A stretch of DNA of 64,000 nt. It comes from a virus (Duplodnaviria > Caudoviricetes). The stretch is from the IMG/VR virus record IMGVR_UViG_3300005611_000021, positions 743-64,742 of that record; one strand, written 5' to 3'. The notes under the pieces are model-generated. The model saw only the letters and a program-made list of their open reading frames with translations. It had not been told where the DNA came from and ran no database searches. The position numbers and the translations under genes were made by a program. Shown here piece by piece: positions 2,758 to 50,228 of the stretch (its first letter is position 1; each line of letters begins with the position of its first letter).

Positions 2758-2988
2758 CTATTCGCTTCTCGCCTGGTGCATTATCAAACTCTTCTCGTGG
2801 ATGCCTTCGTAAATGTCACCCAAAGAGTGAACATCATAGAACCAGCCTCCAAAGCGTGTTTCATCTCGATAAGCCTCTGATACTACGACACCAGACTGGA
2901 TCACAGCAGGGGCGCCCGGAGGGGCGATATTGAAGAAGACTTGATCCTCTTCATAGAATTTCGGACGGAATGAACGGATGGGAATCAT
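2758..2988 (-). CDS. Small protein with MIPIR N-terminal tag
   Basis: 76 aa, starts MIPIRSFR; ATGA-coupled. Confidence 0.8.
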   Translation of the reverse strand: MIPIRSFRPKFYEEDQVFFNIAPPGAPAVIQSGVVVSEAYRDETRFGGWFYDVHSLGDIYEGIHEKSLIMHQARSE

Positions 2989-3209
2989 AGCCTCGAGACT
3001 ACATCACACGAGACATGGTATCTCTTTCCGTTTGTATCCAGCTCAACAACATAGGTTGCCTTCCGGATACCCCTTCCGTCATCAACGAGTTGCTGAATCT
3101 TTCCCGTGTAAACTGAGAGGCCATCCCCAATATCTATACGACACCACACGAGTTCACCTGTAAGGAATTCGCCTTCGCCTTTTTTGGATGATCTGACTGG
3201 GATGCTCAC
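2985..3209 (-). CDS. Small protein with MSIPVR tag, SH3/KOW-like
   Basis: 74 aa; GELVWCRIDIGDGLSVYTGKIQ beta-barrel-like pattern; ATGA-coupled. Confidence 0.8.
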   Translation of the reverse strand: MSIPVRSSKKGEGEFLTGELVWCRIDIGDGLSVYTGKIQQLVDDGRGIRKATYVVELDTNGKRYHVSCDVVSRL

Positions 3210-3643
3210 ATTTCACCCTCCCATGGCTTGAGAACCGCGCTCGACTCGAGGTAGAATTTCCCATTGTGCATGAGGAGGTACCATGGGAGGTTTTTGATTG
3301 TCCCTTTTTCGCACATCTCTCTGTACGCTGGCCCAGGTTTCGTGAAGTCGATATGTAATCCTGATCCAATCCTCACGAGCATCTTGAGGACGATAGCGAC
3401 CGCATCATTCGGGAGATATCCCGCCCGAGCCTCCGTGAATGGGACAGCCTTTCCAGTGAGCCAGATGGCGGCATTCCACTTGCACTCTCGCATGTAGGAG
3501 GAGTATCTGGCCTTGACTGGGGGGCCACCCGCGACAGATGACAGAACGCGGCATTTGGGGCGAAGGACAACCGCATCACTTTCTTTATACCAGAGGGTCC
3601 ATTTTTCCGTTACAGGGATTTTGCCTCGGATTGGAATGCTCAT
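3206..3643 (-). CDS. Protein with MSIPIR tag (145 aa)
   Basis: Start re-assigned to ATG at 3643, which overlaps the upstream stop (ATGA). Confidence 0.8.
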   Translation of the reverse strand: MSIPIRGKIPVTEKWTLWYKESDAVVLRPKCRVLSSVAGGPPVKARYSSYMRECKWNAAIWLTGKAVPFTEARAGYLPNDAVAIVLKMLVRIGSGLHIDFTKPGPAYREMCEKGTIKNLPWYLLMHNGKFYLESSAVLKPWEGEM

Positions 3644-3876
3644 TCTGCGGATAACTCCGTATACCAATAATTGCGATAGATGGGGGCGTCTTTCCACGCA
3701 TTTATTTCCACCTGACACATTCGTTTTTCCGGCCAGGTCGCCACAACCGTTCCCGCGTATCCACGGAATCCGCACCCCTGCTTCTGGATGAATACCGTGT
3801 CTCCACAAGTGGCTTCATTGAGTGGAGTGTACCAGGTTCGACTACTGCCATGCCATGCTCTTACTGGAATGCTCAT
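3640..3876 (-). CDS. Small protein with MSIPVR tag, KOW-like
   Basis: Start at 3876 (ATGA overlap); CGDTVFIQKQGCGFRGYAGTVV. Confidence 0.8.
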   Translation of the reverse strand: MSIPVRAWHGSSRTWYTPLNEATCGDTVFIQKQGCGFRGYAGTVVATWPEKRMCQVEINAWKDAPIYRNYWYTELSAE

Positions 3877-4277
3877 CTCGAGTTCTTCTTTCGCTTGATT
3901 CTCCAGACTGCCGGCTCGTGTATGTATCCAAGGCGAGAATCCGGGGTCCATGTGTCCGGGTTGGCATCCAGCCAGACTTCAGATGCAATGAAGGGTTTTG
4001 TTTGGAATTTGTATTTCCATGAGTCTACACGAATCCCATGCTCATCACTCACCCATTCCTTTTGTATGAGCCGAACACAGATACTTTGTTTGTATGTGTG
4101 GTGCTGGAGGATGTATGGCCGATGGAAGTCAAATGAGAGGTCAGAGACAAACTTGAATGTCGTGGAAACAAGTGGCTTCGCCTTTATACCCATGGTTAGC
4201 CTTCCTCGGGTGAATGAGAACAGGGCTGTCTTCTCCGCATCAATACGATGGATTGTATTCAGAACCGGGATGCTCAT
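3873..4277 (-). CDS. Protein with MSIPVL tag
   Basis: Start at 4277 (ATGA overlap). Confidence 0.75.
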   Translation of the reverse strand: MSIPVLNTIHRIDAEKTALFSFTRGRLTMGIKAKPLVSTTFKFVSDLSFDFHRPYILQHHTYKQSICVRLIQKEWVSDEHGIRVDSWKYKFQTKPFIASEVWLDANPDTWTPDSRLGYIHEPAVWRIKRKKNSR

Positions 4278-4606
4278 GATGGGAATGGCATTTTGAAGTG
4301 TCTCAACACGATGGCCTTCACTTGTGGATGCCTGATGCCCGCACAACCCTTCCAGCCTTCAATCTTTGGAACGACAAACTTGAGACTGCCTCGTGTGCAG
4401 ATCAAGTCCTCATTCCACCAATACTGGCCATCACCCCATGCGAATGCCGCGGTAATGTTCTTAATGTCAGGAATCCGGATCACAAGGGCATGACGGATGC
4501 CATATCTCCGTTGAGCGGCCTCAAGGTAAGTATCCGCGAATTCGATGATATTGGTTTCAATGTTGCCAACGTCCCGATCCCAAACGGCTCTGACTCGTAA
4601 ACTCAT
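4274..4606 (-). CDS. Small protein with variant tag MSLRVR
   Basis: 110 aa; ATGA-coupled at both ends. Confidence 0.75.
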   Translation of the reverse strand: MSLRVRAVWDRDVGNIETNIIEFADTYLEAAQRRYGIRHALVIRIPDIKNITAAFAWGDGQYWWNEDLICTRGSLKFVVPKIEGWKGCAGIRHPQVKAIVLRHFKMPFPS

Positions 4607-4830
4607 CGCTTCGCCTCCGGGATGTATTGCAGCTCATCATCTAGTGACCAGCCGGGTGTCACGAGATCCAGGTCAATCTCGACATGGTAATCGAGACCAA
4701 TAGGCTTCACGATTGCCGTGGATTCCCGAACCTCAATAGCGCGACCGACAAGCCCATAGTGATCTCGATGCCAGATCGTGACCAACTTCCCTTCAATGAT
4801 CCTCTCCATGCCTTTGATGGGGATGCTCAT
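4603..4830 (-). CDS. Small protein with MSIPIK tag, SH3/KOW-like
   Basis: Start at 4830 (ATGA overlap); EGKLVTIWHRDHYGLVGRAIEV. Confidence 0.8.
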   Translation of the reverse strand: MSIPIKGMERIIEGKLVTIWHRDHYGLVGRAIEVRESTAIVKPIGLDYHVEIDLDLVTPGWSLDDELQYIPEAKR

Positions 4831-5039
4831 AAGACCTCGATTTCCTCCGGCTTGCAGGCCAGTCGCATGACTTTTCCCCTTGTTTCGTATTGCACCACAT
4901 AGGGCATGATGTTGTTCATATTCTCCTCGATCACGATGCCACCCTTGATGTCCTCGAATGAGGATGGCATCCGAAAGGTGAATCTGACTGCCCGGCCGAT
5001 TAAGGTTTTGCGTGCACGGAATGAACGAACCGGGATCAT
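4827..5039 (-). CDS. Small protein with MIPVR tag
   Basis: 70 aa, starts MIPVRSFR like the 2988 gene; ATGA-coupled. Confidence 0.8.
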   Translation of the reverse strand: MIPVRSFRARKTLIGRAVRFTFRMPSSFEDIKGGIVIEENMNNIMPYVVQYETRGKVMRLACKPEEIEVL

Positions 5040-5320
5040 ACGAGCATGTTCTTGATTTCGAATGGAACTTCATTAGCATCAACCTTCTGTACTTCGTGTA
5101 TGGAGAATGGGGTTTCCACCGTTTGCTCATCACGCACACCAGCTTCATGCAGGACAATGTATGGATATGGGACACCATCATGAATGCGTAGCAGTAACCC
5201 GTAGAATGAACCCAATGTTGCCGTGACCTTTACGAAGTCGCCCACCTTGAGGGTGAGCTCGTCCGCGATCTGCATGGCGGCCTCGGTGCTGATGTTGAGC
5301 GTCTTTATCGGGATGCTCAT
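5036..5320 (-). CDS. Small protein with MSIPIK tag, KOW-like
   Basis: Start at 5320 (ATGA overlap); KVGDFVKVTATLGSFYG. Confidence 0.8.
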   Translation of the reverse strand: MSIPIKTLNISTEAAMQIADELTLKVGDFVKVTATLGSFYGLLLRIHDGVPYPYIVLHEAGVRDEQTVETPFSIHEVQKVDANEVPFEIKNMLV

Positions 5321-5598
5321 ATTCCAGCAACAACATCGAGTGTCTTGGATGCTCGAAGTGTAGGTGACATGGCATAGCGGCCATAGGGTGAGATGCACTC
5401 CTCATTATCAACGATGGAGATGCCACGCCTTCTCTCGGCACCATCCACCATGATCGTGACGGTCTTTTCCGTGCGGGAGAGGACTTCATGCTTATAGATG
5501 CAATCGTAGTCGCCGATCGAGCGGGTTGCATAGACCTTTCCCACTTCAAACCGGATTGGAGCGATTGTGCTTTTGAGAGACTTGATTGGAATGCTCAT
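5317..5598 (-). CDS. Small protein with MSIPIK tag
   Basis: 93 aa; FEVGKVYATRSIGDYDC pattern; ATGA-coupled. Confidence 0.8.
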   Translation of the reverse strand: MSIPIKSLKSTIAPIRFEVGKVYATRSIGDYDCIYKHEVLSRTEKTVTIMVDGAERRRGISIVDNEECISPYGRYAMSPTLRASKTLDVVAGI

Positions 5599-8400: not shown

Positions 8401-9284
8401 TCGGTGATCCTGTGTGGTTTGTCGTCATCCTTGAGCACCAACTCAGCCTTGAGGATGGAGCGGTATGGGCAGTTTTCCCCTTGCATCACGTAATGGATGG
8501 CTGTCTGCATATCCCGTGCATTTGTCTGGATTCTGGCCTCTCCGCCATCATGCCTGACCGTTACCATGTATTTCTGATTTTCGTAGGGGTTTTGGCCTCC
8601 AACTGAGTTCTCGAAACGTAGTGGCATCACGATGGCCGTCAGCTTGCACTGCGGGCGAGGAGTTGTGATCTCAAGTGCTCCATTCGGAACCTCCCGCAGG
8701 TGATGCAACACCTCACTACCCCCAAGCCCCTTGTGTACATACATCGTGTTCTCAAGATACTTGTAGTTATAGGTATTGCTGGCTATCGTGAGGATGTTGT
8801 GAATGTACGTGCTTTCACTTCGATTCGGCCTGACTGTCCCAATGTTTTTGCCTCCACGTTTTGGGATGTCAATGGGATCTGTCGGGTCCGGGTATTTTAA
8901 CTCGGATGGTGAGATCTCCATGACCTTCGTGTTGAGCTTCAGGATGCGGAATGACGGAACCTTGATTTCCTTGTTCTCGGGAACTTCATGTCGGTAGGAC
9001 TCAACAAACGCATCAATCATAGGGCCTTGTATATAGTGCAGGGTCCGCCCGGTTGTGGCCACGAGCGCCCATTCATCTTGGATCTTCACGATCCCGATTC
9101 CCTGGAGAGCGGGGCGGGCATTGCCCCCTCCCACTTCCTTGCCCATGGGACCATTCATGGATGCGGCATTGAGCCATTTCATCACAGGCACGAATTCCTT
9201 CCAGTCCCTTGCTGCGAGTGTTGTATCGATCCCGTATGTAGGGATGGCCTTTAGGTGGACGTGTGAGATTGTGTGTTTACTCAT
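8397..9284 (-). CDS. DNA polymerase III beta-clamp-like protein (partial, divergent)
   Basis: RPALQGIGIV...LVATTGRTLH resembles the clamp motif RPxLxG...LVATDGHRL; AIVMPLR resembles the clamp C-terminal VMPMR. Confidence 0.55.
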   Translation of the reverse strand: MSKHTISHVHLKAIPTYGIDTTLAARDWKEFVPVMKWLNAASMNGPMGKEVGGGNARPALQGIGIVKIQDEWALVATTGRTLHYIQGPMIDAFVESYRHEVPENKEIKVPSFRILKLNTKVMEISPSELKYPDPTDPIDIPKRGGKNIGTVRPNRSESTYIHNILTIASNTYNYKYLENTMYVHKGLGGSEVLHHLREVPNGALEITTPRPQCKLTAIVMPLRFENSVGGQNPYENQKYMVTVRHDGGEARIQTNARDMQTAIHYVMQGENCPYRSILKAELVLKDDDKPHRITE

Positions 9285-9916
9285 ATCTCGCGTTGTGCCC
9301 CTATGGCGATGGTGGAAGGTTTGACCTTCTCAAGCTTGAGGTTGATGGACTTGCCGAGATTCATGCGCTTCTCCGCGAAGTCATCCCGTGCAATAATGGT
9401 TTCTTTCATCTCCCAACAGTCACTCACTCCCCACTTGTTCATGAAATCCCCGAGCGCCGCCTGGAACTCGAAGTATTTGTCTTCCTTCTCCGCCTCAAGA
9501 CGCTCATGAATGATATCCGCCTTGAGTTCGATTCCATGGGATTCGTGGTAGTAGTCTCCGGAGTCATGGCCTGTCCCGTCGAAGATGTTTTCAATCTCAA
9601 CGATCTGGGCCTCATTGAGGGCATAGGCTCTCGTGGAGGGTTTGACTTGGAGGATACATCCATCAGGGAGTTCGACATTGAATGCCCCTGGAAGCCCTCC
9701 GAAGATACGCTTGCGGGCATTTTCGAGGAGTTGTTGCTTGATCTCACTTCCATCAACTTCTCCCTTGGCGATCTTTGCGGCCTCAATGGATTCATGGAGT
9801 TCGAGTAGTTCATCATCTGTCATTCCGATGTCGGATGGGACGATTCTTGGTGTTTTGCTTTTGCTTCCGCTTGTTTTAGTTGTGCGGATGGCTTTCTTTT
9901 TCGTTGTAATAGGCAT
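9281..9916 (-). CDS. Hypothetical protein
   Basis: 211 aa, basic N-terminus, A/C-rich leader. Confidence 0.7.
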   Translation of the reverse strand: MPITTKKKAIRTTKTSGSKSKTPRIVPSDIGMTDDELLELHESIEAAKIAKGEVDGSEIKQQLLENARKRIFGGLPGAFNVELPDGCILQVKPSTRAYALNEAQIVEIENIFDGTGHDSGDYYHESHGIELKADIIHERLEAEKEDKYFEFQAALGDFMNKWGVSDCWEMKETIIARDDFAEKRMNLGKSINLKLEKVKPSTIAIGAQREI

Positions 9917-10071: not shown

Positions 10072-10685
10072 CGTGTGGAGAACCTGAATTTGATCCAGTT
10101 GCCGCTCACCTGTGTTGGCGACTGGATTTGATGGGGATACTTGGATTTGGCCTTCACAGCGACAACACCCTCAACGACTGGTTGAGTCTCCCGGTTGCGC
10201 TTCATGATCCCCTTGGCCATGTTGATGAGGCTATTGTATCGATCCGTGTTGAACGATGAGCCATACCACCATGGGAGAATGAGGATTTTGGAATCCGCTT
10301 TGAGTGGTTTTGGCATCGGGATGGTTTCCTCGAACTCAGGGAATCCGAGAGTTTCCAGACGCTTCATGCAATCCTCAAAGGAATCCTTGCGTTCAGGTAG
10401 GTCCAGGAATGCGATATGGTTCTTCATCCAGATGGATTTGCACATCCACTCACAATCGAACCACTCGTCACTGACTTGGAGTTCTTCCCGGAACTTCCGC
10501 AACTCCTCGAGAGGGATGTTTTTTCCTTTGGTGTAGCGAACACCATGCCGGTTGAACATCTCTCCCGTGATAACATTGACCAATACTCGATCCCCATTGA
10601 CTTTGGGGCGAAATATGTGGTCGTGCATGTGCTTAGTGATTCTAGGCCCTCCGTTTCGAGGCCGTGCTGGGTAGGTAGGTATCAT
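10068..10685 (-). CDS. ATP-dependent DNA-ligase-like adenylation domain (no OB domain)
   Basis: Motif I PKVNGDR, III FDCE, IIIa FLDL, IV EGVVAVK, V WIKFR in correct order; 205 aa. Confidence 0.7.
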   Translation of the reverse strand: MIPTYPARPRNGGPRITKHMHDHIFRPKVNGDRVLVNVITGEMFNRHGVRYTKGKNIPLEELRKFREELQVSDEWFDCEWMCKSIWMKNHIAFLDLPERKDSFEDCMKRLETLGFPEFEETIPMPKPLKADSKILILPWWYGSSFNTDRYNSLINMAKGIMKRNRETQPVVEGVVAVKAKSKYPHQIQSPTQVSGNWIKFRFSTR

Positions 10686-10900
10686 TCTCTACACACGAAC
10701 ATCAAGTGTTCGGGCTTGAATCCGGTATGGACATATCTGTCATTTTCATCAGACCAGATCTTAACTCCATAAGCGCGGAGACCCGGCTTTGGTGTAGACT
10801 CGATTTTGCCATGCACGTTGAAGAAATCCCCTCTATGGAGGACAAGAACGGTGTCACCGATTTGATATACACGCTCATGCCTTCGAATCGGTATGCTCAC
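10682..10900 (-). CDS. Small protein with MSIPIR tag, KOW-like
   Basis: GTG start; QIGDTVLVLHRGDFFNVHGKI. Confidence 0.8.
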   Translation of the reverse strand: MSIPIRRHERVYQIGDTVLVLHRGDFFNVHGKIESTPKPGLRAYGVKIWSDENDRYVHTGFKPEHLMFVCRE

Positions 10901-13357: not shown

Positions 13358-14587
13358 TTAGAAGGACTTATTCACGATGGATTCCCATGCTTTCACCTGC
13401 TCGGTCATAGGCAGGCCGTCATGATCCTCGGCGACAAACCAAGTGTTGAAGCCGTCTGCCAGCAACTCGTCTTTGAGTTGTTTCTTGGCTTCGGATTCCT
13501 TTGGCTCATGAACGAGTGATATGAGGTGAGTGAATTCACGGATGCTCGGTGAGTTTTCGAGCAAGTGTTTCTTCTCAGCGTCAACGCCGGCCTTCCATAG
13601 GTTGATGAAGCAGGTCGTGATGTGATCTGTCCATCCACGAGTCTTCACAACTGGGCCAATTACATCCTTGATGAGGTTCACGGATGTGTCCGTGTAGAAT
13701 GGCTTGAACCTGGCTCGGATCGCCGGGGTGTCCGGCTCGCAATCGAACTTGGTTCCGCTATTCTGGGTGCCGATGATGGAGATGTTGGACATCGGTGCGG
13801 TGATCTTACGAGTCACCATGATGCCATCCTCTTCAACGGGTTCACCTGTATCAAGCGTGAGGTTGCCATCCGCGTCAGGTGATGTGGCCGTCTGGAAGGC
13901 TTGTTTTGCCTTGCGTGGGACGTTTCCAATCTCATCGAGGATGATACAGACTGATTTCCCGGCGGCGGCCAGGATGAACGCCTGAGCGAGTGGCCCATTG
14001 ATCCATTTGAAGTTTCCATCAGCCCCGATGCCTGGGCCTGCGATGAAATCCCGTGCTTCCATGTCAGCCATACATCCAACCTTGATGACGAGATCAAAGC
14101 CTGCGGTGTTGGCCCATTGGGTGACGGAAAACGTCTTGGAGGCGCCTGGGGGTCCCTTGAAGATGACAAACCATTTGCCTTCCCCGAGTTCCTGACCCGG
14201 ACGACAGAACTTCTCACAGTTGCGGAAGATGAGACTTCCTTTGCCGGATTTGGCCGCAATCTTCTTCGCTGACATGATGACTTTTTTCTTCTTCTCGTCA
14301 TCTGCCATTGCGGTCAGTTGATCCACCAAAGCAGCAGCGATTGCTGCCGTATCTACCTTAGATGCGAACTTTTTAGAAACGATCGCGAGTACATCATCAC
14401 AGAAGTTCTCATCCGGGTGAATGCCTTCCTTTTCCATGATGGCGATAATGTGAGACTCGAAGTCCTTATTCGCCTTGAGTTCAGCAAGGATGGCGTTCGG
14501 GTCTGCGGAGCCACCGATAGATTTGATTGCATCTTGGAGCTCTTTAGACTCCTTTACGGCCTCTACGAGTACGGGCGTTATGTCCAT
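13358..14587 (-). CDS. MoxR/CbbQ/CobS-type AAA+ ATPase
   Basis: Walker A GPPGASKT, Walker B IILDE, sensor GTQN, arginine finger RARF. Confidence 0.85.
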   Translation of the reverse strand: MDITPVLVEAVKESKELQDAIKSIGGSADPNAILAELKANKDFESHIIAIMEKEGIHPDENFCDDVLAIVSKKFASKVDTAAIAAALVDQLTAMADDEKKKKVIMSAKKIAAKSGKGSLIFRNCEKFCRPGQELGEGKWFVIFKGPPGASKTFSVTQWANTAGFDLVIKVGCMADMEARDFIAGPGIGADGNFKWINGPLAQAFILAAAGKSVCIILDEIGNVPRKAKQAFQTATSPDADGNLTLDTGEPVEEDGIMVTRKITAPMSNISIIGTQNSGTKFDCEPDTPAIRARFKPFYTDTSVNLIKDVIGPVVKTRGWTDHITTCFINLWKAGVDAEKKHLLENSPSIREFTHLISLVHEPKESEAKKQLKDELLADGFNTWFVAEDHDGLPMTEQVKAWESIVNKSF

Positions 14588-15355: not shown

Positions 15356-15383
15356 AAATTGGGCCATCCCACCCAACCGATTA
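15356..15383. repeat. Conserved intergenic element, copy A
   Basis: aaattgggccatcccacccaaccgatta; ends in the stop codon of the 15381 gene. Confidence 0.7.
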
Positions 15384-15752
15384 TCGCAAGCTCAGAATCT
15401 TCGGAAGGCTGTAAACGCACCCATCCTCATCCTTCTCGAATTTGCAACGGACGATGTATCTACCATCATCCATCTTGACTCGAGAGGCGAGAATGCCTGA
15501 GCCTGAGCCTTCTTCGCACTGCACAAGGTTCAAGCACTTGCGATTGAAGGCCATATCACTATCGCCAAATCGCACCCAGTACACATCATCCATGTGTCCT
15601 ACGTTTACAAGGATTCCCCTTTGCCCGATACGTGAGCGGGTCCTCTCAGACCACACGTTGCCCCTCAAGGGTTTGAACCCTTTTGGGACGGTATCCACGA
15701 CCTCAACGACCCAGTGGCGTCCCTGGTCGCGGGCACGGACGGGGATGCTCAT
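15381..15752 (-). CDS. Protein with MSIPVR tag
   Basis: 123 aa; IGQRGILVNVGHMDDVYWVRFG barrel-like pattern; ATGA overlap. Confidence 0.8.
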   Translation of the reverse strand: MSIPVRARDQGRHWVVEVVDTVPKGFKPLRGNVWSERTRSRIGQRGILVNVGHMDDVYWVRFGDSDMAFNRKCLNLVQCEEGSGSGILASRVKMDDGRYIVRCKFEKDEDGCVYSLPKILSLR

Positions 15753-16453
15753 ACCGCAATCCCCTTTGCCTCTAGGAGGGGGTTGATGTGATCCTTGAGG
15801 CGGATTACGCTTCCACTCTCAAGACGTGCCCAGAAGACCTCATGCTCGCCTCCTGTGGAATCCGTAGCGAGGTCGTTTGCCAGCATTCTTGCGAATGTCA
15901 TGTCGGAGGTAGGGGGATGCAGCTGGCCGCTACTGGATTGGAGGACTTCCACGCCCTCGCAGAGGAGAGCGATGAGAGCTTCCCATGTTGCTCGGATGCT
16001 GAAGTTTTCACGAGCTGCCTTGCACAACGGATGGGTGAACAACGCTGCATATCGTTTCTTGCGATTGAGTGAGGTCAGTTTCTTCTCGAGTTCGAGCAGT
16101 CTGGCTGCACGAGACTTGGCTGCGGCCGCAGATTCCTCTTTGCCCTTCAGGAAGGCGATGAATTTTTCCTCTTTCTCACGCTTTTCCGCTTGGCGGAGTG
16201 CGTTACGTAGGTTTCTAGCCTTGACTCGTGAGGATTTTGCATCGCGAGCGATTTGAGCAAACTCATCCCTAGCGATGAGTCGTCCGTCATCGGTCATTAC
16301 CATCATCTGCAACTCTTCTCTCGCAGGGTCTCGTGGCTTTGGCGTGGTCATCGCTCTTTCGAGCTTTTGGGCGGCTGCCCGTCTGAGGTTGGCTTTGAGG
16401 AGTGCTTGATCCTCGCGGCGTTGCTGGATGTCGTGTGTATTTGGTTTTTTCAT
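15749..16453 (-). CDS. Hypothetical coiled-coil protein
   Basis: Probable start MKKPN at 16453 after an aaccgaaa leader. Confidence 0.65.
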   Translation of the reverse strand: MKKPNTHDIQQRREDQALLKANLRRAAAQKLERAMTTPKPRDPAREELQMMVMTDDGRLIARDEFAQIARDAKSSRVKARNLRNALRQAEKREKEEKFIAFLKGKEESAAAAKSRAARLLELEKKLTSLNRKKRYAALFTHPLCKAARENFSIRATWEALIALLCEGVEVLQSSSGQLHPPTSDMTFARMLANDLATDSTGGEHEVFWARLESGSVIRLKDHINPLLEAKGIAV

Positions 16454-16498
16454 TTCGGTTTTTCGGTTGTGAGCGATTCGTTGTGAATCCCTCGGGTT

Positions 16499-16525
16499 AA
16501 ATTGGTCCATCCCACCACCCGATTA
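16499..16525. repeat. Conserved intergenic element, copy B
   Basis: aaattggtccatcccaccacccgatta. Confidence 0.7.
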
Positions 16526-17110
16526 GCCCTCGTCACACACACACATGAGCGTGTCTAAGCCGGAGAGACAGCGCTTGCAAAAGCCGATATGCGGCAAGAT
16601 AGCTTTCACGATCTCAACGGCCGTCGTGTCCAGGGGAAGAGACGCTGCGATCGGGAAGGGCGCTGTAAATCTGTCGTACGGGTCATACCCGTAGAATTCG
16701 TATCCGTCTTCCTCGCGGATCAGAAGGTTCTCCTCGCCTTGCACTTCGAGGTAGTAAGCGTCCATACAGACGCAGACGCCCCCTTGCCCATAGATCTCGC
16801 AGATCTTCGCAAGGATCACCCCTGCGATGTCGAGAGTGCTTGAGAAGGGCAAGGCTCCGTCAATGCCTGCCTTTGCGAATGGGTTCGTGGAAGAGGAGTA
16901 AGCGAGGGCATTCGCGACCCTCACAATCTCGTCACCTTCCAATGCGGCCGCAAGGCGGGCGTTTTTCATTACGACAACCCAGATGTTCAACGATGGCAGA
17001 TACCGAGCATCCACGCGCTCGGTTTTGGCCCAGTTTGTTTCCGTTTCCAAGACACGGAATATAGCGTCAGTATTGAGAAGGCTGACATCCTTCGCTTGAT
17101 TCGCTGGCAT
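16523..17110 (-). CDS. Hypothetical protein
   Basis: 195 aa; GAAAGGA upstream; C-terminal CxxC...CxC. Confidence 0.7.
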   Translation of the reverse strand: MPANQAKDVSLLNTDAIFRVLETETNWAKTERVDARYLPSLNIWVVVMKNARLAAALEGDEIVRVANALAYSSSTNPFAKAGIDGALPFSSTLDIAGVILAKICEIYGQGGVCVCMDAYYLEVQGEENLLIREEDGYEFYGYDPYDRFTAPFPIAASLPLDTTAVEIVKAILPHIGFCKRCLSGLDTLMCVCDEG

Positions 17111-17164
17111 AGCGATTCCTTTCTTTTCGGTTCATGCTTGTGGCGTATCCGTAGATACCCCGTG

Positions 17165-17209
17165 AAATTCGGCCACCCACCCAACGGCCACCCACCCAAC
17201 GAGCGATTA
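17165..17209. repeat. Conserved intergenic element, copy C (internal 15-bp duplication)
   Basis: aaattc(ggccacccacccaac)x2 gagcgatta. Confidence 0.7.
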
Positions 17210-20821: not shown

Positions 20822-20891
20822 GGAGAATGAATACAGGGAAGCCCACCGGCGCGTCGTGCCGAGGGGCTTTTCCTGTTATAGGACCCCAACC
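20822..20891. terminator. Direct repeat copy 2; likely bidirectional terminator at the terL 3' end
   Basis: acaggg-aagccc...gggctt-ttcctgt hairpin between convergent genes. Confidence 0.7.
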
Positions 20892-22651
20892 GTCCCGGTG
20901 ATGAGTGCCCCAGTAAGGATCATGCACTCACAGTCCCAGTAGTGATTTGGGCGGCGAGGTTTGTTCACCCAGATGTATTTCACGCGGCCATGGGTGTCTA
21001 CAATTTCCTCGCGGCGCTCTGCGTTCATCTGGTCGATGTAGTCAATGGTGACGTTCTCCGGGAGTTGCCAGGGCGGACCCAGACCTTGCCTGTATTCCGC
21101 GAGTAAATCCTTGATGGAAGGATTGGAAAATACGAATAAGCGAACCGGCCGAACCATGCCTTGCATAGAGGTTCCCAACGCTGGATCGATGAGGGTGTCT
21201 TTCCAGACTTGGCGGACTCCATCGACATTGAAGTATTCGAAGTCATCCCCCTTCATCGGCTTCCATGTATAGCCAGATTTCGTCACCTCATCATAAACTG
21301 AGGTCGCGTTGTATCCCGAGTCAATGATGACATCATCATCTTCAATCCCGAGAGTCGGCAAGAGTTCTCGCAGCTCGGAGAAGCCTGGGAGCCGTCCATA
21401 GTCCATAAGGCGACTGGCTCCATGTGTCCCGAATGCCCGACAAACATAGTAGAGGCAATCCTTCTGGACATCCACCCCGATAAACCGCCGCTTCTCTCCC
21501 TCCCAGTGATCCCGGAGTTTGAAGCTTCCCTTGCGATCATTTTCCCATTTGGCGGATTTGCCATACTTCAGGCGATCTTCCCAAGGCTGACCAAGGGATT
21601 CTGTCACAAAGGTCTTCAGGGGCTCAGGATCGCCCCATGAGAGAGCTTTCTTGGATGAGATGAATTCCTCAACCAAATCCCGCCATGCGACCCATGTGGG
21701 AAGGATCGCATTCCATGTGAAGGATTTTCTGTTGGATGGCGCCTCAAGGTTGGTCGGTACCCATTCGCCATCCATAGCGAGGCGGCGACGATCCCGTGGA
21801 TGGTCATAGATCTTGTGACCACATTTGGAGCATTGGATGTGAATGGTGGGGGCGAGTTTATCAAAGTCATAACGGCCGCCTGGTTTCGTATGATCGTTCG
21901 TCTCCCATTTCATGAAGAAGCCATCTTCTGCCCCCATTGAAAAATCCTCACTCCATAGAAGAGAATTTTCATTTCCGCACTGGGGGCAGGGGATCTTCCA
22001 TACCTGTTGATCGCCTTTGAGAAATTCCTGATGAACCGCATCATGCTCATCCCCTGGAGTTGAAATCACCACCTGCCGGGCGTTCCAGAAAGTTCGGCAC
22101 CGCTTGAGCACCATTGGTAGTGCTCCGGGAGGCCAGTTTCGGACCTCATCAAGTAGAAGCCAGCGCCGGGGCTTGGATTGGAGTTTCGAGGGTGCGTTGG
22201 ACCCGACAATCTCCAGGGTCATGTGTGGAAAAAAGATTTCCTTGGATTTGGCAAGCCCCCGGTCGTTGGGGATCATGTAGGCAACAGGCTCACACGCCCG
22301 GAGAGAGGGCATCATCCGTTCCTTGGCAAACTTGAGGGCTTCATCCTCATTGGCCGTCACCCACATGGCAGGCCCAGGATCTTCCGCAACCAACCAGTTG
22401 AGGAGTGCGAGCATGGTTTCCGTTTTGGCTGACTGAGCAGAACACATCACGGAGATGGAGCGAATCTTGTTGTCGGCGAAGGTCTCCATAAACTTCCGCA
22501 CCCAGGGAGAATTATCTGATCTCCATTTTCCGGGGAAAGGGGATACCGCAACCCGAAAGTGATCTTCTGCCCATTTCCAAGGTGGCCGCCGGTCTGCTGG
22601 CTTCCAACCAAGACTCGCTGCTCGACTCACGATGTTCATATCAGCTTCCAA
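20876..22651 (-). CDS. terL: Terminase large subunit (lambda GpA family)
   Basis: SPFPGKWRSDNSPW, Walker A SAQSAKTE, Walker B LLLDE, CPQC zinc motif, nuclease GVDVQ and NHYWDC. Confidence 0.95.
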   Translation of the reverse strand: MEADMNIVSRAASLGWKPADRRPPWKWAEDHFRVAVSPFPGKWRSDNSPWVRKFMETFADNKIRSISVMCSAQSAKTETMLALLNWLVAEDPGPAMWVTANEDEALKFAKERMMPSLRACEPVAYMIPNDRGLAKSKEIFFPHMTLEIVGSNAPSKLQSKPRRWLLLDEVRNWPPGALPMVLKRCRTFWNARQVVISTPGDEHDAVHQEFLKGDQQVWKIPCPQCGNENSLLWSEDFSMGAEDGFFMKWETNDHTKPGGRYDFDKLAPTIHIQCSKCGHKIYDHPRDRRRLAMDGEWVPTNLEAPSNRKSFTWNAILPTWVAWRDLVEEFISSKKALSWGDPEPLKTFVTESLGQPWEDRLKYGKSAKWENDRKGSFKLRDHWEGEKRRFIGVDVQKDCLYYVCRAFGTHGASRLMDYGRLPGFSELRELLPTLGIEDDDVIIDSGYNATSVYDEVTKSGYTWKPMKGDDFEYFNVDGVRQVWKDTLIDPALGTSMQGMVRPVRLFVFSNPSIKDLLAEYRQGLGPPWQLPENVTIDYIDQMNAERREEIVDTHGRVKYIWVNKPRRPNHYWDCECMILTGALITGTVGVL

Positions 22652-24633: not shown

Positions 24634-24873
24634 ATGAGCGTAAACGATTGGAGAATTGCTTATCGCATGTATTCAAGTCAAGAGCTTGACGAGGAACGTG
24701 CAAGGCTAAAAGAGGAGGCAAAGAATGCGTTGCTGTCTCAGTCAGCGGGGTCTCGGAGTTACACAAGGTCGGTCACACAGATCAACCAACAACTCCGAGC
24801 GCTTGCGGAAGTAGTTGACGAAAACAATGGTGTATCCAACATGGCTTCCACATACGTTGATTTCTCACAATGA
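24634..24873 (+). CDS. Head-to-tail joining protein (gpW-like)
   Basis: 79 aa directly before portal; SQSAGSRSYTR hairpin flanked by helices. Confidence 0.7.
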   Translation: MSVNDWRIAYRMYSSQELDEERARLKEEAKNALLSQSAGSRSYTRSVTQINQQLRALAEVVDENNGVSNMASTYVDFSQ

Positions 24874-26504
24874 CTGAACCGAAAACACCAAGAGCGTCCT
24901 GGCTGGACAAAACCATTTCCTTCATAAACCCGGAAGCGGGACTCAAACGGAAGTATTACAAAGATCAACTCGAGTTTGCTTATGATGCGGCAAACTTAGG
25001 AAGGGCAGCGGCAACACTCGGGGGGACGGCTTCCCTTGCTGCTCCGGAATCCCTTGCCAACCAACGGGATCGCATCAAGATGATGTGGGAAGCCCGGAAT
25101 CTGGTGAACAACTACTCATTTTTCAAATCTATCCTTCTGAAGGAAGCGATGTATGTCTGTGGCCAGATTCGGTACCAGTCTCAAACCGGGAATCCCGATA
25201 TTGACCGTCAAATTGAAAGCTACTTTTCGGAATGGAGCAAGAGGTGTGATGTGACAGGCCGCTACCCTTTCCGGCATCTGGTTCAACTCGCTCACATGGG
25301 GATGCGGAGAGATGGTGATGCGGGTTTTGCATTGGTGACTCAAGGGAAGGATGTTTTTCTTCAGGCAATCGAGGCGGATCGCTTAGGAAACCCCCATGAG
25401 GGCGGGAAAAATGATGATACCTACATCGGGGGAATTACCATCGATAATCTTGGCCGCCCCCATCAGTACCGGATTTTCAAGCGGACCCTCCACGGACAAT
25501 ACACGAATCCAAGGGATGTCCCTAAGTCAAATTTCATCCATTACATAGACCCGCTGCGAGCGGATCAATACCGAGGGATCACAGCCTTTGAGACTGCGAT
25601 TCCTCATGCTAAGGACTTGTATGAGCTTCTGCAAATGGAAAAACTCGCGGTCAAATGGGCTTCCGCTCATGCGGGTGTCATTACCAAAGATGACCATGGT
25701 AAGGACAAGTGGAGCTCAACCCCGGCGGCTGCCCCTCCACAACCAGGAGATCCGCTTCAGAAGGGCAACCACTTGAATCTTGAGGCCGTGCACGCCGGGA
25801 AGCTCATTCGGCTTCGGCCTGGTGAGAGCATGGAGGCATTCAGCACGAGTTCCAGGCCATCAGCGACTTTCAATGGTTTCATCACAACGCTCGTCCGGGA
25901 GATGGCCAATGGCCTCAACCTTCCGTTTGCGTTTGTGTGGGATATGAGTGCATTTGGGGGTGCGACTGCCCGGCTTGAGGTGCAGGCCGCCCAGCGTGCT
26001 TTCATGAGGCATCAACAACTTCTTCAGGAGCAAGTCCTTGATCCAGTGAAGAACATTGTGATTTCTCGGGCTATCGCTTTCGGGGATCTACCGCCCAATG
26101 CCAATTACCGCAAAGGGCGCTGGCAGTTCAATTCCCAGATCACCGCTGATCTTGGTCATGAAACCCAGGCCAACCTTTCTCTTCTCGAGGCGGGTCTCAA
26201 GACTCGTGGAACTATCATCGGTGAAAGTGGCCGTGATTTCGAAGAAGAAATTGAAAAGATTGCCAAAGAAATCGCCTACATGGAGGAAATGAGCAGGAAA
26301 TACAAGATCCCACTCGCTCTCATCGCTAAGACTCTTGAAGGTGGCTCCAAGGCTATTGTGGATTATCGTGAAGCCCTCGCAAGTGAAGCGGAAGGTCAGG
26401 AGCCTTCAGATCATGATGCAGAGATCGCAGCGAAACAAACCATGGCACAAACGGCCGCTCAACTTCAGGCTCAGAATCAATTTGCACCCGCTCAACCCGA
26501 ATGA
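24870..26504 (+). CDS. Portal protein (lambda family)
   Basis: LQAIEADRL, GITIDNLGRPHQYRI, DQYRGIT, L.PGE, ARLE motifs; 544 aa. Confidence 0.95.
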   Translation: MTEPKTPRASWLDKTISFINPEAGLKRKYYKDQLEFAYDAANLGRAAATLGGTASLAAPESLANQRDRIKMMWEARNLVNNYSFFKSILLKEAMYVCGQIRYQSQTGNPDIDRQIESYFSEWSKRCDVTGRYPFRHLVQLAHMGMRRDGDAGFALVTQGKDVFLQAIEADRLGNPHEGGKNDDTYIGGITIDNLGRPHQYRIFKRTLHGQYTNPRDVPKSNFIHYIDPLRADQYRGITAFETAIPHAKDLYELLQMEKLAVKWASAHAGVITKDDHGKDKWSSTPAAAPPQPGDPLQKGNHLNLEAVHAGKLIRLRPGESMEAFSTSSRPSATFNGFITTLVREMANGLNLPFAFVWDMSAFGGATARLEVQAAQRAFMRHQQLLQEQVLDPVKNIVISRAIAFGDLPPNANYRKGRWQFNSQITADLGHETQANLSLLEAGLKTRGTIIGESGRDFEEEIEKIAKEIAYMEEMSRKYKIPLALIAKTLEGGSKAIVDYREALASEAEGQEPSDHDAEIAAKQTMAQTAAQLQAQNQFAPAQPE

Positions 26505-37228: not shown

Positions 37229-40200
37229 ATGGCGAAGAATAAGCTATTAAGTGGACTCTTGGAAGTCCGAGGTGCCTTGTGGGGTCTGATTGATCCTGCC
37301 ATAGCTTTTGCGGAAACAGGAAAGAAGTCTTCCGCGATTTGGGCTGGCCTTCGCGGTGTGTTGATGGATAAAGTCCTTGGTCCCTTGTCTTTGGTTTCGG
37401 GGGGGGTGATCGGTTTGCTCGGTACAATCAAGCTTGTTACGAATCAAATGGATCTCCTCGCTAAGGGTATGACGAAGCTTCGCCAGCTTGAAATGCTGAA
37501 GACTCAGTTTCAGCCTCTCGTTGGGGGGGCGATCTCCGCGAAAAAGCGTCTCCAGGAATTGTATGTATTTGCTGCCCGGACCCCTTTCCAGCTTCATGAG
37601 ATTGCGGAGGCTTCCAAGACCCTTGAGGTTTTGACTCGAGGTGCGATCTCAACAGGTAAGGGTTTGAGAATGGTCGGTGATGCAGCGGCCGTCTCCGGGA
37701 ATGGTATGCAGTCTGTGGCCTTCTGGGTCGGCCGACTCTATGATGGACTCAAATCCGGTCGTCCGATTGGTGAAGCTACCAACCGTTTGCAGGAGATGGG
37801 TTTGATGACAGGAGAGGTGCGAACCCGTGTGGAAACTCTTTCGAAATCCGGTGCTGAATTCAGTATGGTTTGGAAAGAGGTTGAGAAAGGCATGGAGCGA
37901 ATGGATGGGGGTATGGATCAGCTTTCCAAGACGATGATTGGTCTTGAATCCACCCTTGCTGATATCCGGGAACAATTTGAGGCATCCTTCGCGGAGCCAT
38001 TCCAGGCAGGAGAGGCCGCATCCATCAAGGGCATGACGGAGTTGCTGGTTGCTCTTGAGGCTCCGGTCTCTCGAATTGGTCACTGGCTTGGAGTTGGTTC
38101 GAATATGATGGCCAAATTTATCGGTACTATCGGGAATCTGGCCAAGAGTGCCACAGGTGGAGGGCGAGGTCTTGAATACCTTGTGGATTCCTTTGTGGCC
38201 CTTGGGGGGGCGATTGTTATCACTCAGTTGATTACTTCCACCAAGGCCATCATTGATATGACTAAGGCCACCAGGGGTCTTGCTCAGGCAAATTGGCTGC
38301 TGACCGCAAGTGAGAATGCCAAGGGTCTAGGAAACCTGATGTCAAGGAATCGGGCTCAACGCCAAGCGGATATCGCTGCCCATCGCCGTCGTTATGGTAC
38401 TGATCCTAAGAAGAAGTTTGGTGGGGGTATGGGTGATTTTTTCCGGGATCTCTTTTTTGGTTTGGGTGCATTAGAGGTTCTTGATCGAGATGCGCAGGGT
38501 AATGTAAAGAAGGACAGTGCTGGAAATGATGTGAGGCGAAAGGCCACTCGTGGGGAGAAGGGGAAAGCCTTGGGTGGATTCCTGTTGAGAGCTTTAGCGA
38601 ATCCACTCGCCTTGATAAAAGACATCATTGTTGGTTTGGGTCGGGCGATCGCTGCGGCCTTCGGTCCGATCGGTGCCGTCGTTGCCGCGGTTGCCGCGAT
38701 TGGTATTTCTTTCTATCGGATGTATTCCGGCGCCGCCAAGACTCGTACGGAAGTCAAGGAGATGAATAAGGAGTTTCAGGAATTCAAGAAGGTTGTGGAT
38801 GATTCTACCAAATCCATGAAGACCTTCTCGGATAAGTCTGCTCTCATCACCAAGATCAAGGAAAAGATTTCTGCGGCAAAGGATGAGTTGCTGAAGCTTC
38901 AGAAAGAGGAGGAGAATGAGGGGTACTTTACGGATGTTGGTGAGCGTGCTATGGGTACGGATACTGCCAAAATCGATGCTCAGAAGAAGTTGATTATGGC
39001 TCTCCAGGGTGAATTGGAGAAGGTTTATGCAATCGAATCCTCAACACTCACCATCGGGAAGGCTCGGGAAGCTCAACTTGCTCGTCAGCTTGACTTGGCT
39101 GAACGGATGAGTGCTTTGGAATTTGATTTCCGGATGGGATCGGATAGTCCTGCCGCCCAGATCTCTGCCATGGATACCCGTCGGGAGTATCTTCGAAACC
39201 AGATCGAGCAGGCTCAAGCCACAGAGCAGGGTGATGTGATGAAGGATGAATTCACCCGCTCAGATCAACGAGCTCGCTACCTTCTCTCTGCTGAGAGATA
39301 TAAGAATGAGGAAGAGGAAATGTATGCCCGGATGGGTGTGTGGGGAAAGATGGCTGAACGGAAGCAGGTTCAGGCAGATATCAAAAAGCTTGAGAAAGAA
39401 GATGAGGATAATCTCCAAAACAACAACGCGAAGAAGATCAAAAATCTCAAAGAGCAGGAAAAGAAGCTTGGTGTTGAGATTGAATCAGGCTTGGATAAAG
39501 CCCCTGGCTGGATGCACGCTCGAGTCAATGACGCAAGGCGAGCGCGGGAGCGGATCAACAGGCTTTATGGGGATGGCTCCATCTCTCAATATGCAGGCAC
39601 GATTTCCAAGGAAGATATCGCCAGGGTCTCCAAGCATGGATACTCGGATGAATTAGGTATCCGGGTCCAGGAGGGACGCATGGGGGCAGAGACCTCCCAA
39701 TCGAAAAAGCTCGCAGCGGAATATACGCTTCAGAATGACACGACACTGAATGCTGAACAGAAGCGAGCATTGCAGAGTATTATTGATATTGAGAAAGTTC
39801 GTCTCGATAAACTGAATGAATTCATCCTCGCTCAACAGAAACTTAAAGAGGAGATCCGGCAACAAAACCGGGAAATGCGACTTTCCCTTGCCCTGATTGA
39901 TGCCGAGCGTGGTCGTCGCCAGGCTCTTGTTGGTGTTTTTAATCAAACTGAAGGCTCGCAGCGTAAGCGTCTCGAGGCAACACGGGATGAGGCGGCCGCA
40001 AGGTTGGAAGCTGAGAAAAAGTATGGTGGGGGAACCCAGGCAATAAAGGATCTCAAACAGGAAATCACCTTTCTTAGTGGAAAGGGTCATGGGGTTGGTG
40101 GCAAAGAGGGGTCTCGCCTTAACATGAATGGCCAAACCAACGCGGAGTATGCTATGGCCCAGAGTGGGGCTCAGACTCGTGAGGAACAGGAGGCATGGCT

Positions 40201-41044
40201 TCGTCGGGAGATTGCCCAGAAGAAGAAAGCCTTAGCTGATGCGGAAGCTGCAAATGCGGGCGTCATCAATGCCACAAACGCCTTGGCTGATGCGGAAAAG
40301 AACCTGGCTCAGTTTTTCAAAGATACAGAAGAACGTCTTCGGAAAGCTGTGTATCAGCTCGATAAGGAATTTACGGATCTCAAGGTTGCTGAAGCTTTTT
40401 CAAGTATAACCGCAAAGCAAGCTGCGGGAATGGATACTGGTCTCTTGCTTGATTTTGCCGCGAGAAACCTGCGACAACAAGAGCAGGCGGATGAGGCTGA
40501 GTTTCGCCGCAAGACTCGCTCTCGCTTGAAATCTGAAGGTATAGAAGGTGATGAACTGGATAATCTTGTGAATCGAGCAGTGAGTCAGCGTAAGCAAGAA
40601 TTTGAGAATGCTGGCCTCCAACAGGATTCACAGGCCGCGGATGAGAAAGCCTTAGCTGAACTTCGTTTCAAACAACGTGCTGGACTGGTTGGAGTGAAGG
40701 ATGTTCGCCAGAAAGAATTCGATATCTTTGCCAGGGAAGAACTCAAGAAGCAGATCCGTATTTCCGCTCGGGAGGGTGGGACAGATGAGGAAATTCGGGC
40801 TCGTGCGGTAAACCGGACCCAAGAGAAGCTTCAGGCGAAAGTCTTGGATTCCCTTCCTGAACAAAAACTCTTAGCGGATTCCCTTCGCCGGATCGGTGCA
40901 GGGGGCCGTGCGGTTGCCAATGATCCTCTTAAAATTCTTGCTGAACGACAGCTTCAGGCTAATGAAGCCATCCGTACAAATACTGGCATCATAGTGGACA
41001 AGCTCGACAATCTTAAACCGAAAGACCAAGTGATAGGCCAATGA
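37229..41044 (+). CDS. Tape measure protein
   Basis: 1271 aa; tape-measure N-terminal domain (FAARTPFQLHEI...GRPIGE), hydrophobic segments, long coiled coil. Confidence 0.9.
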   Translation: MAKNKLLSGLLEVRGALWGLIDPAIAFAETGKKSSAIWAGLRGVLMDKVLGPLSLVSGGVIGLLGTIKLVTNQMDLLAKGMTKLRQLEMLKTQFQPLVGGAISAKKRLQELYVFAARTPFQLHEIAEASKTLEVLTRGAISTGKGLRMVGDAAAVSGNGMQSVAFWVGRLYDGLKSGRPIGEATNRLQEMGLMTGEVRTRVETLSKSGAEFSMVWKEVEKGMERMDGGMDQLSKTMIGLESTLADIREQFEASFAEPFQAGEAASIKGMTELLVALEAPVSRIGHWLGVGSNMMAKFIGTIGNLAKSATGGGRGLEYLVDSFVALGGAIVITQLITSTKAIIDMTKATRGLAQANWLLTASENAKGLGNLMSRNRAQRQADIAAHRRRYGTDPKKKFGGGMGDFFRDLFFGLGALEVLDRDAQGNVKKDSAGNDVRRKATRGEKGKALGGFLLRALANPLALIKDIIVGLGRAIAAAFGPIGAVVAAVAAIGISFYRMYSGAAKTRTEVKEMNKEFQEFKKVVDDSTKSMKTFSDKSALITKIKEKISAAKDELLKLQKEEENEGYFTDVGERAMGTDTAKIDAQKKLIMALQGELEKVYAIESSTLTIGKAREAQLARQLDLAERMSALEFDFRMGSDSPAAQISAMDTRREYLRNQIEQAQATEQGDVMKDEFTRSDQRARYLLSAERYKNEEEEMYARMGVWGKMAERKQVQADIKKLEKEDEDNLQNNNAKKIKNLKEQEKKLGVEIESGLDKAPGWMHARVNDARRARERINRLYGDGSISQYAGTISKEDIARVSKHGYSDELGIRVQEGRMGAETSQSKKLAAEYTLQNDTTLNAEQKRALQSIIDIEKVRLDKLNEFILAQQKLKEEIRQQNREMRLSLALIDAERGRRQALVGVFNQTEGSQRKRLEATRDEAAARLEAEKKYGGGTQAIKDLKQEITFLSGKGHGVGGKEGSRLNMNGQTNAEYAMAQSGAQTREEQEAWLRREIAQKKKALADAEAANAGVINATNALADAEKNLAQFFKDTEERLRKAVYQLDKEFTDLKVAEAFSSITAKQAAGMDTGLLLDFAARNLRQQEQADEAEFRRKTRSRLKSEGIEGDELDNLVNRAVSQRKQEFENAGLQQDSQAADEKALAELRFKQRAGLVGVKDVRQKEFDIFAREELKKQIRISAREGGTDEEIRARAVNRTQEKLQAKVLDSLPEQKLLADSLRRIGAGGRAVANDPLKILAERQLQANEAIRTNTGIIVDKLDNLKPKDQVIGQ

Positions 41045-49394: not shown

Positions 49395-50228
49395 ATGACT
49401 GATGAGAACCAAGCCCTCCCTGTGGAGGCACTTAGTAATGAATCTGTTGCTCTCCAGCGTGGAGAGCCAAGTGAGTCTTTAGATCTTTACGCCAATTTTG
49501 GTGCGCAATGGGAAGCTATTGAGAACTTCGGGAGGGCGATCGCCCTCAGTGGTATGTGTGGCTGCGAGAAGCCTGAGCAGGGTACGATCATCGCATTCAC
49601 TTGTATGGCGGAAAAGATCACTCCGATTGAGTTTGGTCGCATTTATGACCTTATTCTCGGAAAGCCGACGATGAAGGCTGCCACCATGCTCGCAAAGCTT
49701 CGCACAGACTATGGTGGAGACTTCGAATGGACGGAGGTTGGGGATGATGGCCAGCGAGCCACGCTCAAGCTCTGGTATCGCAACAAGGAGCTCGCACCAG
49801 TCTCTTATACATGGGAGGAAGCCAGTAAGGTTGTCGTTAATGGAAAACCATTGATTCAGAAGGACAACTGGGTGAATAATCCAGGGGCGATGCTTCGTGC
49901 TCGTTGTGTAACCAAGGCTCTCCGTATGCACGTCCCGGAAATTGCAGCTGGAATCTATGATCCAGATGAGCTTTCAGATGCCACAAGTGCGGTTAGAAAC
50001 ATGATGTCTCAGCCTGTAACCAAAGAGGAACCCAGTCGTGATTGGCTTAGTGACCTCAAGGATAAGTTGGAGAACTGCTCTGATTCGATCCGGGAGAATG
50101 CCACTGCTCGCATTCTCAAGCGATTCAAAGTCGCAGAACTCGACTCCCTCGGGCCAGCCCAGGCCAAGAAGGTTGTTGAGGCTTGGGACGCATTCATGGA
50201 TGACTTGGCAAAAGGCGAGAAGAAGTGA
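49395..50228 (+). CDS. RecT-like single-strand annealing protein
   Basis: LILGKPTMKA; NWVNNPGAMLRARCVTKALR...AGIYDPDE. Confidence 0.75.
   Translation: MTDENQALPVEALSNESVALQRGEPSESLDLYANFGAQWEAIENFGRAIALSGMCGCEKPEQGTIIAFTCMAEKITPIEFGRIYDLILGKPTMKAATMLAKLRTDYGGDFEWTEVGDDGQRATLKLWYRNKELAPVSYTWEEASKVVVNGKPLIQKDNWVNNPGAMLRARCVTKALRMHVPEIAAGIYDPDELSDATSAVRNMMSQPVTKEEPSRDWLSDLKDKLENCSDSIRENATARILKRFKVAELDSLGPAQAKKVVEAWDAFMDDLAKGEKK

Follow-up and report, generated by a model that had tools for sequence, protein, structure and literature searches.

The stretch of DNA considered here, called the window throughout, is 64,000 nucleotides long and covers bases 743-64742 of a 64,742-bp sequence from an uncultured phage (IMG/VR record IMGVR_UViG_3300005611_000021), which carries an 11-bp terminal repeat. 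Its subject is a set of 19 genes whose products begin with one and the same short peptide, M(S)IP[VI][RK], hereafter the tag; 16 of them carry it exactly and three as variants (MSIPVL, MSIPVV, and MSLRVR). A preliminary description of the window had presented this start as shared by at least 18 unrelated small proteins and had proposed a new targeting or docking system. All 19 starts that it named are there, and a literature search on the motif strings found nothing relevant, in agreement with its statement that no such tag had been described before. The tagged proteins make up about a fifth of the genes of the phage. They are 30-145 amino acids long (70-81 in nine of the 19), and their isoelectric points (pI) range from 4.1 to 12.

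Ten of the genes form an array on the minus strand that runs from 5598 to 2758, and the ten-gene chain of overlaps noted earlier is real: an ATGA or GTGA overlap couples each gene to the preceding one. The array begins with two MSIPIK genes (5317-5598, 93 amino acids; 5036-5320, 94 amino acids, with ATGA at the overlap), which are followed by the Ser-less form MIPVR (4827-5039, 70 amino acids) and by a third MSIPIK gene (4603-4830, 75 amino acids); public collections have the same start for these four. The other six are public gene calls as well: the degenerate MSLRVR, written ATG AGT TTA CGA GTC AGA (4274-4606, 110 amino acids); MSIPVL, in which the last residue varies (3873-4277, 134 amino acids); MSIPVR (3640-3876, 78 amino acids); MSIPIR (3206-3643, 145 amino acids); MSIPVR with a GTG start codon (2985-3209, 74 amino acids); and MIPIR (2758-2988, 76 amino acids), the last gene of its arm. 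Longer upstream extensions of the open reading frames (ORFs) mask the starts of five of the ten, an effect that had already been pointed out for the array.

A second array lies on the plus strand, at 61686-63671, behind the dUTPase gene (61210-61689). Its first member, MIPIR (61686-61967, 93 amino acids), shares an ATGA overlap with that gene. Next comes the weakest gene call of the set, an ORF of 30 amino acids with a poor coding score (61964-62056), in which MSIPVR is followed by RKRKIPIV; made up of tag, basic run, and second IPIV, it may represent either a family member in decay or the tag as a free peptide. MIPVR (62053-62352, 99 amino acids) and the acidic MSIPVR protein (62657-62899, 80 amino acids) precede two paralogues of 81 amino acids each, MSIPVV (62896-63141) and MSIPVR (63138-63383), and the array ends with MSIPVR (63405-63671, 88 amino acids). 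The last two tagged genes are isolated inside the minus arm. One is MSIPVR (15381-15752, 123 amino acids, minus strand). The other, MSIPIR with a GTG start (10682-10900, 72 amino acids, minus strand), is a weaker call: its start is absent from the public collection, and the antisense frame scores slightly better. Taken over the whole set, public gene callers give the identical start for 15 of the 19 proteins, and among the six frames the tagged one comes out top by codon score in 17 of 19 cases; the genes at 10900 and 61964 are the least certain. Fourteen of the starts stand in ATGA or GTGA overlaps, and about half of the 19 have no Shine-Dalgarno sequence.

Is the tag more than chance would give? 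Strict matches number 17 in the 64,742-bp genome, including one likely spurious antisense ORF at 46429, and in 200 second-order Markov simulations a genome has on average 0.225 tagged starts and never more than 2, so that the comparison with background proposed in the preliminary description comes out clearly for the motif. The enrichment, about 75-fold over the simulation, is restricted to positions directly after start codons. When IP[VI][RK] is sought in all six frames it occurs 21 times; 17 of these follow a start codon, and the other four are within the simulated total of 5.8 +/- 2.5. Because the occurrences away from starts equal the background, the tag is specifically N-terminal. An unbiased count of N-terminal k-mers on five other phage loci gave nothing comparable.

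The codons of the tag tell what is being conserved. Information content aligned at the start codon follows codon phase: in the Ile, Pro, Val/Ile, and Arg/Lys codons the first and second positions hold 0.8-2 bits, and the third positions hold 0.47, 0.02, 0.6, and 0.34 bits, respectively. Proline is encoded by CCC (4), CCA (5), CCG (4), and CCT (5), isoleucine by ATT (8), ATC (7), and ATA (3), and arginine by CGT, CGA, CGC, AGA, and AGG, i.e., by both the CGN and the AGR family; the mixed codon usage on which the earlier argument was built is thus borne out by the counts. Residues 7-10 carry at most 0.5 bit each, with no conserved site after the tag, and upstream of the starts only a loose purine-rich region is conserved. 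Conservation in phase with the codons means that the main cause is not a DNA repeat, gene conversion, an RNA operator, or a downstream box, and it shows long-term purifying selection on the amino acids. With wobble positions near random and the motif confined to N-termini, selection acts on the peptide and not on a DNA or RNA site, as had been proposed. That the tag stems from gene conversion or from a DNA repeat was also rejected, since its wobble positions are saturated, and polyprotein cleavage sites were rejected because real stop codons lie between the genes and the upstream C-termini are unconserved.

The Ser codon is the sole place where a base is conserved independently of codon phase, as would be expected of an mRNA start signal. 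It is AGC in 13 cases and AGT in two (n = 15), never TCN, and AGY accounts for 24% of the Ser codons genome-wide, with AGC and AGT at 11-13% each; other genes starting with MS use mostly AGT. The AGY choice follows from the ATGA overlap, which forces A at base 4. The overlap leaves unexplained the preference for C over T at the wobble position and the presence of AGC in three tags that do not overlap. To us the AGC preference looks like a vestige of shared ancestry, to which a small effect at the nucleotide level may have been added. At the peptide level, Thr, Asn, and Arg never stand in place of Ser, although a single mutation would give any of them and leave ATGA intact. For valine, GTG is never used in the tags.

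Whether the carriers are really unrelated, as first stated, depends on how the question is put. The description stands in so far as no pair is significantly similar except 62896 and 63138 (E 2.5e-11), and it falls short in so far as these two are paralogues and a weak residual similarity runs across the set. Searches of all tagged proteins against Pfam and PHROGs gave nothing below E 0.009, a sequence search of the PDB gave no match, and matches in the ESM Atlas were to unnamed clusters only. Once the tag is trimmed off, 24 of 304 comparisons among members give weak phmmer matches, against 35 of 1224 for reversed or shuffled decoys (p 1.8e-4) and 14 of 666 for untagged small proteins of the genome (p 4.6e-5), a 3- to 4-fold enrichment over both controls. 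Smith-Waterman Z-scores of the members are marginally above control (p 0.023), and hhalign of two tag-trimmed subfamilies gives P 0.039 at a probability of 1.3%. In alignment A2, a G-x-x-V strand and a Y-x-V-x-F strand recur in many tagged proteins, and the SH3-repeat protein P0258 has repeat units to which the 15752 protein is similar at E 2e-4. A low-confidence AlphaFold2 model is all-beta with a coil N-terminus. A small beta-barrel is a conceivable fold for the tagged bodies.

Our reading is that the tagged genes are probably one fast-diverging multigene family in which only the N-terminal peptide is constrained. This rests on the tandem arrangement and duplication, with arrays of 10 and seven tagged genes, on the similar sizes, on the invariant AGY Ser codon, on the one paralogue pair, and on the weak mutual similarity; together they suggest a common descent for most members.

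Outside the window, relatives of the tagged proteins are very rare. A set of 5.8 billion proteins contains no homologue of the paralogues 62896 and 63138. Scanned in full with HMMER, 1.84 billion representatives yielded a single orthologue of the 15752 protein, P0256, of 142 amino acids and 39-43% identity, and this distant relative retains the tag, as selection on the peptide would have it. It starts MSIPIR (ATG AGC ATC CCA ATC CGC), where the window has ATG AGC ATC CCC GTC CGT, so that the Pro and Arg codons differ by the synonymous changes CCC>CCA and CGT>CGC. P0256 is located on L025, a contig of a mosaic sister strain. There, two genes stand as divergent alleles of 43-50% identity (15381-17165 of the window versus L025:447-1881), the 195-amino-acid gene at 16523-17110 is missing, and an extra gene of 76 amino acids is present; since the flanks are 97-100% identical to the window, the mosaicism is sharp. 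A strain variant of the 63405 protein differs by four substitutions, none of them in the tag.

Strain comparisons also show that the tagged genes come and go. In L045, which belongs like L025 to the SRR19514075 sister strain, bases 7360-5599 of the window are swapped for 94 nucleotides (L045:1355-1448), which removes four genes, namely the PAPS-reductase-like and Zn-finger genes and two that encode 68 and 78 amino acids. On the left, the junction cuts a gene after four codons (MSAK); on the right, it coincides with the base that precedes the ATG of the 5598 gene, a break that is also found in three lagoon runs. A more divergent strain, seen in run X4, breaks at the start of the 4606 gene, where a loose end behind that position apparently removes the 4830 gene, and it carries 12 nucleotides inserted directly after the tag of the 2985-3209 gene. 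Within the tagged genes of this strain, 22 of the 39 listed differences fall at third codon positions (12 of the 18 listed in the 3206-3643 gene), figures that cover 40 listed of 87 differences; this bias marks the tagged ORFs as coding sequence under purifying selection. Gain and loss of this kind between strains make the tagged genes a plastic, cassette-like accessory compartment. Their neighbours are the PAPS-reductase-like, Zn-finger, and dUTPase genes, and no enzyme is constantly linked to them: L045 keeps tagged genes and lacks both the PAPS-reductase-like and the Zn-finger gene, which are therefore dispensable, and this argues against either as a partner that modifies the tag. A RecT-like protein followed by a 351-amino-acid protein is encoded at 49395-51280, possibly a recombination module, which could drive mosaicism between strains at the level of microhomology.

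Searches for the tag itself led back to the same phage. Neither the loci around homologues of the PAPS reductase (L001-L007) nor those of terminase relatives 57-70% identical (L008-L015, L022, and L023) contain the tag or a homologue of any tagged protein. DNA patterns with two tags at the commonest spacing matched nothing but tandem repeats or chance sites in IMG/VR, nothing but the same phage (L027) in JGI metagenome contigs, and nothing at all in 185,579 GTDB species genomes. A single MSIPVR pattern matched 72 loci in IMG/VR, none with a second tag. The 301 Verrucomicrobiota genomes gave 68 matches, about the uniform-random expectation, with at most two per genome, and the recurrent ones that were inspected are out-of-frame readings of a conserved gene, not gene starts. 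Tag arrays are thus limited to one lineage in everything searched. On this evidence the tag is private to that lineage and no copy of a common host N-terminus.

The genome is that of a tailed phage and has genes for a large terminase that is GpA-like (20876-22651, minus strand), a portal of lambda type (Phage_portal_2, 24870-26504), and a tape-measure protein (37229-41044), together with a primase/helicase, a C5 methyltransferase, a RecT-like protein, and a MoxR-type AAA_5 ATPase (13358-14587). The terminase and the portal make the head module lambda-like, and scans of the genome with PHROG and Pfam gave no match to T4-type head genes. No near-identical or related cultured phage was found, the terminases of cultured phages being at most 27% identical; metagenomic relatives have terminases that are 57-88% identical, with P0121 and P0125 at 77-88%. 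Of 16 terminase relatives in bacterial genomes (L028-L043), 12 are in metagenome-assembled genomes (MAGs) of Verrucomicrobiota, at 31-46% identity, and the MAGs of this set are nearly all assigned within that phylum, as Akkermansia, Verrucomicrobiales, or Verrucomicrobiia. Terminase relatives are a weak pointer, and the host phylum of the phage group is probably Verrucomicrobiota. The DNA of the phage is present in lagoon metagenomes, and no RNA run is listed among the sequencing runs that contain it.

The genes are laid out in two long convergent arms that meet at a strong hairpin (2726-2754). This GC-rich element, with an 11-bp stem, lies exactly between the ends of the two arms and is likely a two-way terminator. 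A sigma-70-like promoter stands at the head of the minus arm (18039-18011), and the ten-gene array is the distal end of that arm. The tagged genes sit at the distal ends of arms that carry genes for replication and nucleotide metabolism, and outside the head module.

What could hold five residues constant on such different proteins? We tentatively favour, as a possibility rather than a settled explanation, that the tag serves as a short linear motif through which a single shared partner reads a family of small accessory proteins. The 19 genes would form an accessory family private to the lineage, enlarged by local duplication and diverged almost beyond recognition, with the first five residues as its sole constrained part. 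Methionine aminopeptidase removes Met before Ser and keeps it before Ile. Given this specificity, the MS- and MI- forms would mature to one register, [S/M]-I-P-[V/I]-[R/K], counted from the free N-terminus and with Pro in third place. A single partner, encoded by the phage or by the host, would then recognise every member through this pentapeptide, and each member would owe its own target to its variable body. That Ser is never swapped, that both forms would share a register, and that the position is strictly N-terminal all fit a motif read from a free N-terminus.

Several points weigh against this explanation. Beyond the tag, the two paralogues are the only significantly similar pair, and the Ser wobble C in 13 of 15 tags hints at an added effect of nucleotide-level constraint or of descent. 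Two AlphaFold2 models are unusable (pLDDT, the predicted local distance difference test score, of 45.8 and 40.8) and settle neither the fold nor whether the tag is exposed. The tag is absent from relatives with which the phage shares the terminase, the portal, and the AAA_5 ATPase, so that none of these is an obvious reader. An easily exploited host factor would predict other users, and no array use appears in the other phages and Verrucomicrobiota genomes searched. Finally, the genome, most of which has no Pfam match, revealed neither a partner nor a reader domain nor a modifying enzyme. The targeting or docking system of the preliminary description is accordingly not demonstrated, as neither a partner nor a modifying enzyme, a protease, or a link to the virion came to light.

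Two other explanations for the conserved start are each unlikely. The first is a shared degron or timer: a host AAA+ protease or its adaptor would recognise the N-terminal peptide, and the members would be short-lived and confined to one phase of infection. A motif held at the extreme N-terminus in a fixed register, on genes co-transcribed with non-structural ones, would suit such a role. N-motif 1 of ClpX is reportedly an N-terminal recognition motif of ClpXP substrates, described by Flynn and colleagues in 2003. It resembles the tag in its position at the very N-terminus after Met removal, a position directly after a start codon that 17 of the 21 six-frame occurrences of IP[VI][RK] have, and in its polar, hydrophobic, and basic residues, since the tag offers a small or polar residue, two hydrophobic ones around Pro, and then a basic one. 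Set beside the ClpX pattern (polar-T/hydrophobic-hydrophobic-basic-hydrophobic), S-I-P-V-R has the same residue classes but stands one position out of register and adds a Pro that the published motif lacks. The difference in register counts against a degron, and so does the fact that other phages of the probable host phylum, in the sets searched, do not use the tag.

The second is that the tag is the family's own functional site, either an inhibitor-like N-terminal arm that enters the pocket of a target or a strand of a common small beta-barrel, with no third party to read it. The weak evidence of a common ancestry or fold among the bodies, the SH3-type match of the 15752 protein, and the all-beta model with its coil N-terminus agree with such a site. 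However, a purely structural strand is not expected to be far more conserved than the core of its barrel, and the bodies vary widely in size and charge, across the full ranges given above.

Could the peptide act in cis instead? The first codons, or the nascent M-S-I-P-V-R, might set early elongation, re-initiation at ATGA, or processing, with no specific partner involved. The many overlapping starts and the frequent lack of a Shine-Dalgarno sequence would suit this, and the Ser wobble C and the avoidance of GTG for Val hint at a constraint on nucleotides. Yet the remaining wobble positions are near random and both Arg codon families are used, which means that neither RNA sequence nor tRNA identity is conserved; the tag is also missing from the phage's highly expressed structural genes and from its other ATGA-coupled genes. 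We regard a cis effect as quite doubtful.

An address for the virion or capsid, which would load diverse small proteins into the prohead for co-injection, is improbable. It draws on the likeness to the T4 internal proteins, in which a conserved N-terminus also stands on hypervariable bodies with strain turnover. Against it, the tag is not followed by an L/I-x-E cleavage site, the head module resembles that of lambda and not that of T4, the tagged genes lie far from the head genes, behind the dUTPase and behind the AAA_5 arm, and nineteen cargo species are many for a 65-kb head. A bolder reading would have one dedicated receptor take the pentapeptide, at its free N-terminus, as an address, either to load about 19 small, diversifying effectors into the virion for co-injection or to tether them to a host AAA+ protease; we take it to be a long shot. 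If the protease version were true, each variable body would deliver a different host protein, such as a defence protein, for destruction, and under either version the phage would have built its own family of targeting adaptors.

The last explanation, that the shared start has no function and was left behind by a recent duplication, by gene conversion, or by a translation-start cassette put to repeated use, can appeal to the constant AGY of Ser and to strain breakpoints at or a few bases from the starts of tagged genes, but it is essentially excluded by saturated synonymous sites beside invariant amino acids and bodies diverged beyond recognition, and by an orthologue that keeps the tag at about 40% identity, where neutral decay would long since have erased five residues.

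Shared N-termini occur elsewhere in this phage and its relatives. In the head region of the window, three genes at 29662, 31977, and 33466 (613, 119, and 122 amino acids) have an identical ten-residue start, MNHNNVISLP, and probably encode decoration-type proteins with a common capsid-binding arm. In a relative whose terminase is 66% identical (L022:14001-16341), three adjacent genes of 292, 321, and 157 amino acids start with MSKLILTSKK, MLILTKK, and MLVLTKK; the codons of the shared start partly differ, and the three have no other BLAST similarity. These starts are a second, smaller set with a shared N-terminus in the phage group. In the window, the gene at 9281-9916 starts MPITTKKK.

The tag offers an unusually clean case, with about 19 proteins of a single phage that share an invariant five-residue N-terminus and have diverged in all the rest. 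If one partner reads it, a single synthetic peptide could retrieve that partner, and a common mode of action would be at hand for a fifth of the genes in a nearly unannotated lineage. The reach of these considerations is limited by the fact that the phage is uncultured, its host only guessed, and the tag so far found in one lineage.

Known systems help to picture how such a peptide could be used. The inhibitor-of-apoptosis-protein-binding motif of Smac, A-V-P-I, is a tetrapeptide that is read from the exposed alpha-amino group after processing. It follows the same logic of a small residue, a hydrophobic one, Pro, and a hydrophobic one from a free N-terminus. It differs in being eukaryotic and in needing Ala1, and the analogy extends only to how the peptide could be read. 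The ankyrin/PRANC proteins of poxviruses carry a conserved F-box-like element at the C-terminus, the known partner of which is SCF. Like the tagged proteins, they are tandem, fast-diverging paralogues with a short conserved terminal element and a variable binding body; unlike them, they belong to eukaryotic viruses, their element is C-terminal, and their partner is known.

The nearest conceptual precedent named at the outset was the capsid targeting sequence (CTS) of T4, and this precedent is apt in its pattern, with a capsid role for the tag possible, but less so in its details, given the missing cleavage site and the distance of the tagged genes from the head genes. The T4 CTS spans about 10 residues and ends in L/I-x-E, which the prohead protease gp21 cuts, while the tag has five residues and no Glu; T4 has a handful of members against the 19 found here. 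Nor do the tagged proteins resemble those with Sec, Tat, or lipoprotein signal peptides: in place of a hydrophobic core of 7 or more residues, polar or basic ones follow the tag, and the proteins as a whole are hydrophilic. What the two phages have in common is the conserved N-terminal leader. The internal proteins in T-even phages are diverse, with only the CTS conserved (PMC3012670), and in both cases a short N-terminal peptide is the sole common feature of small proteins that are hypervariable and differ from strain to strain (PMC3012670). Short peptides serving as an address or a handle may be a more general means for phages to organise their accessory genes.

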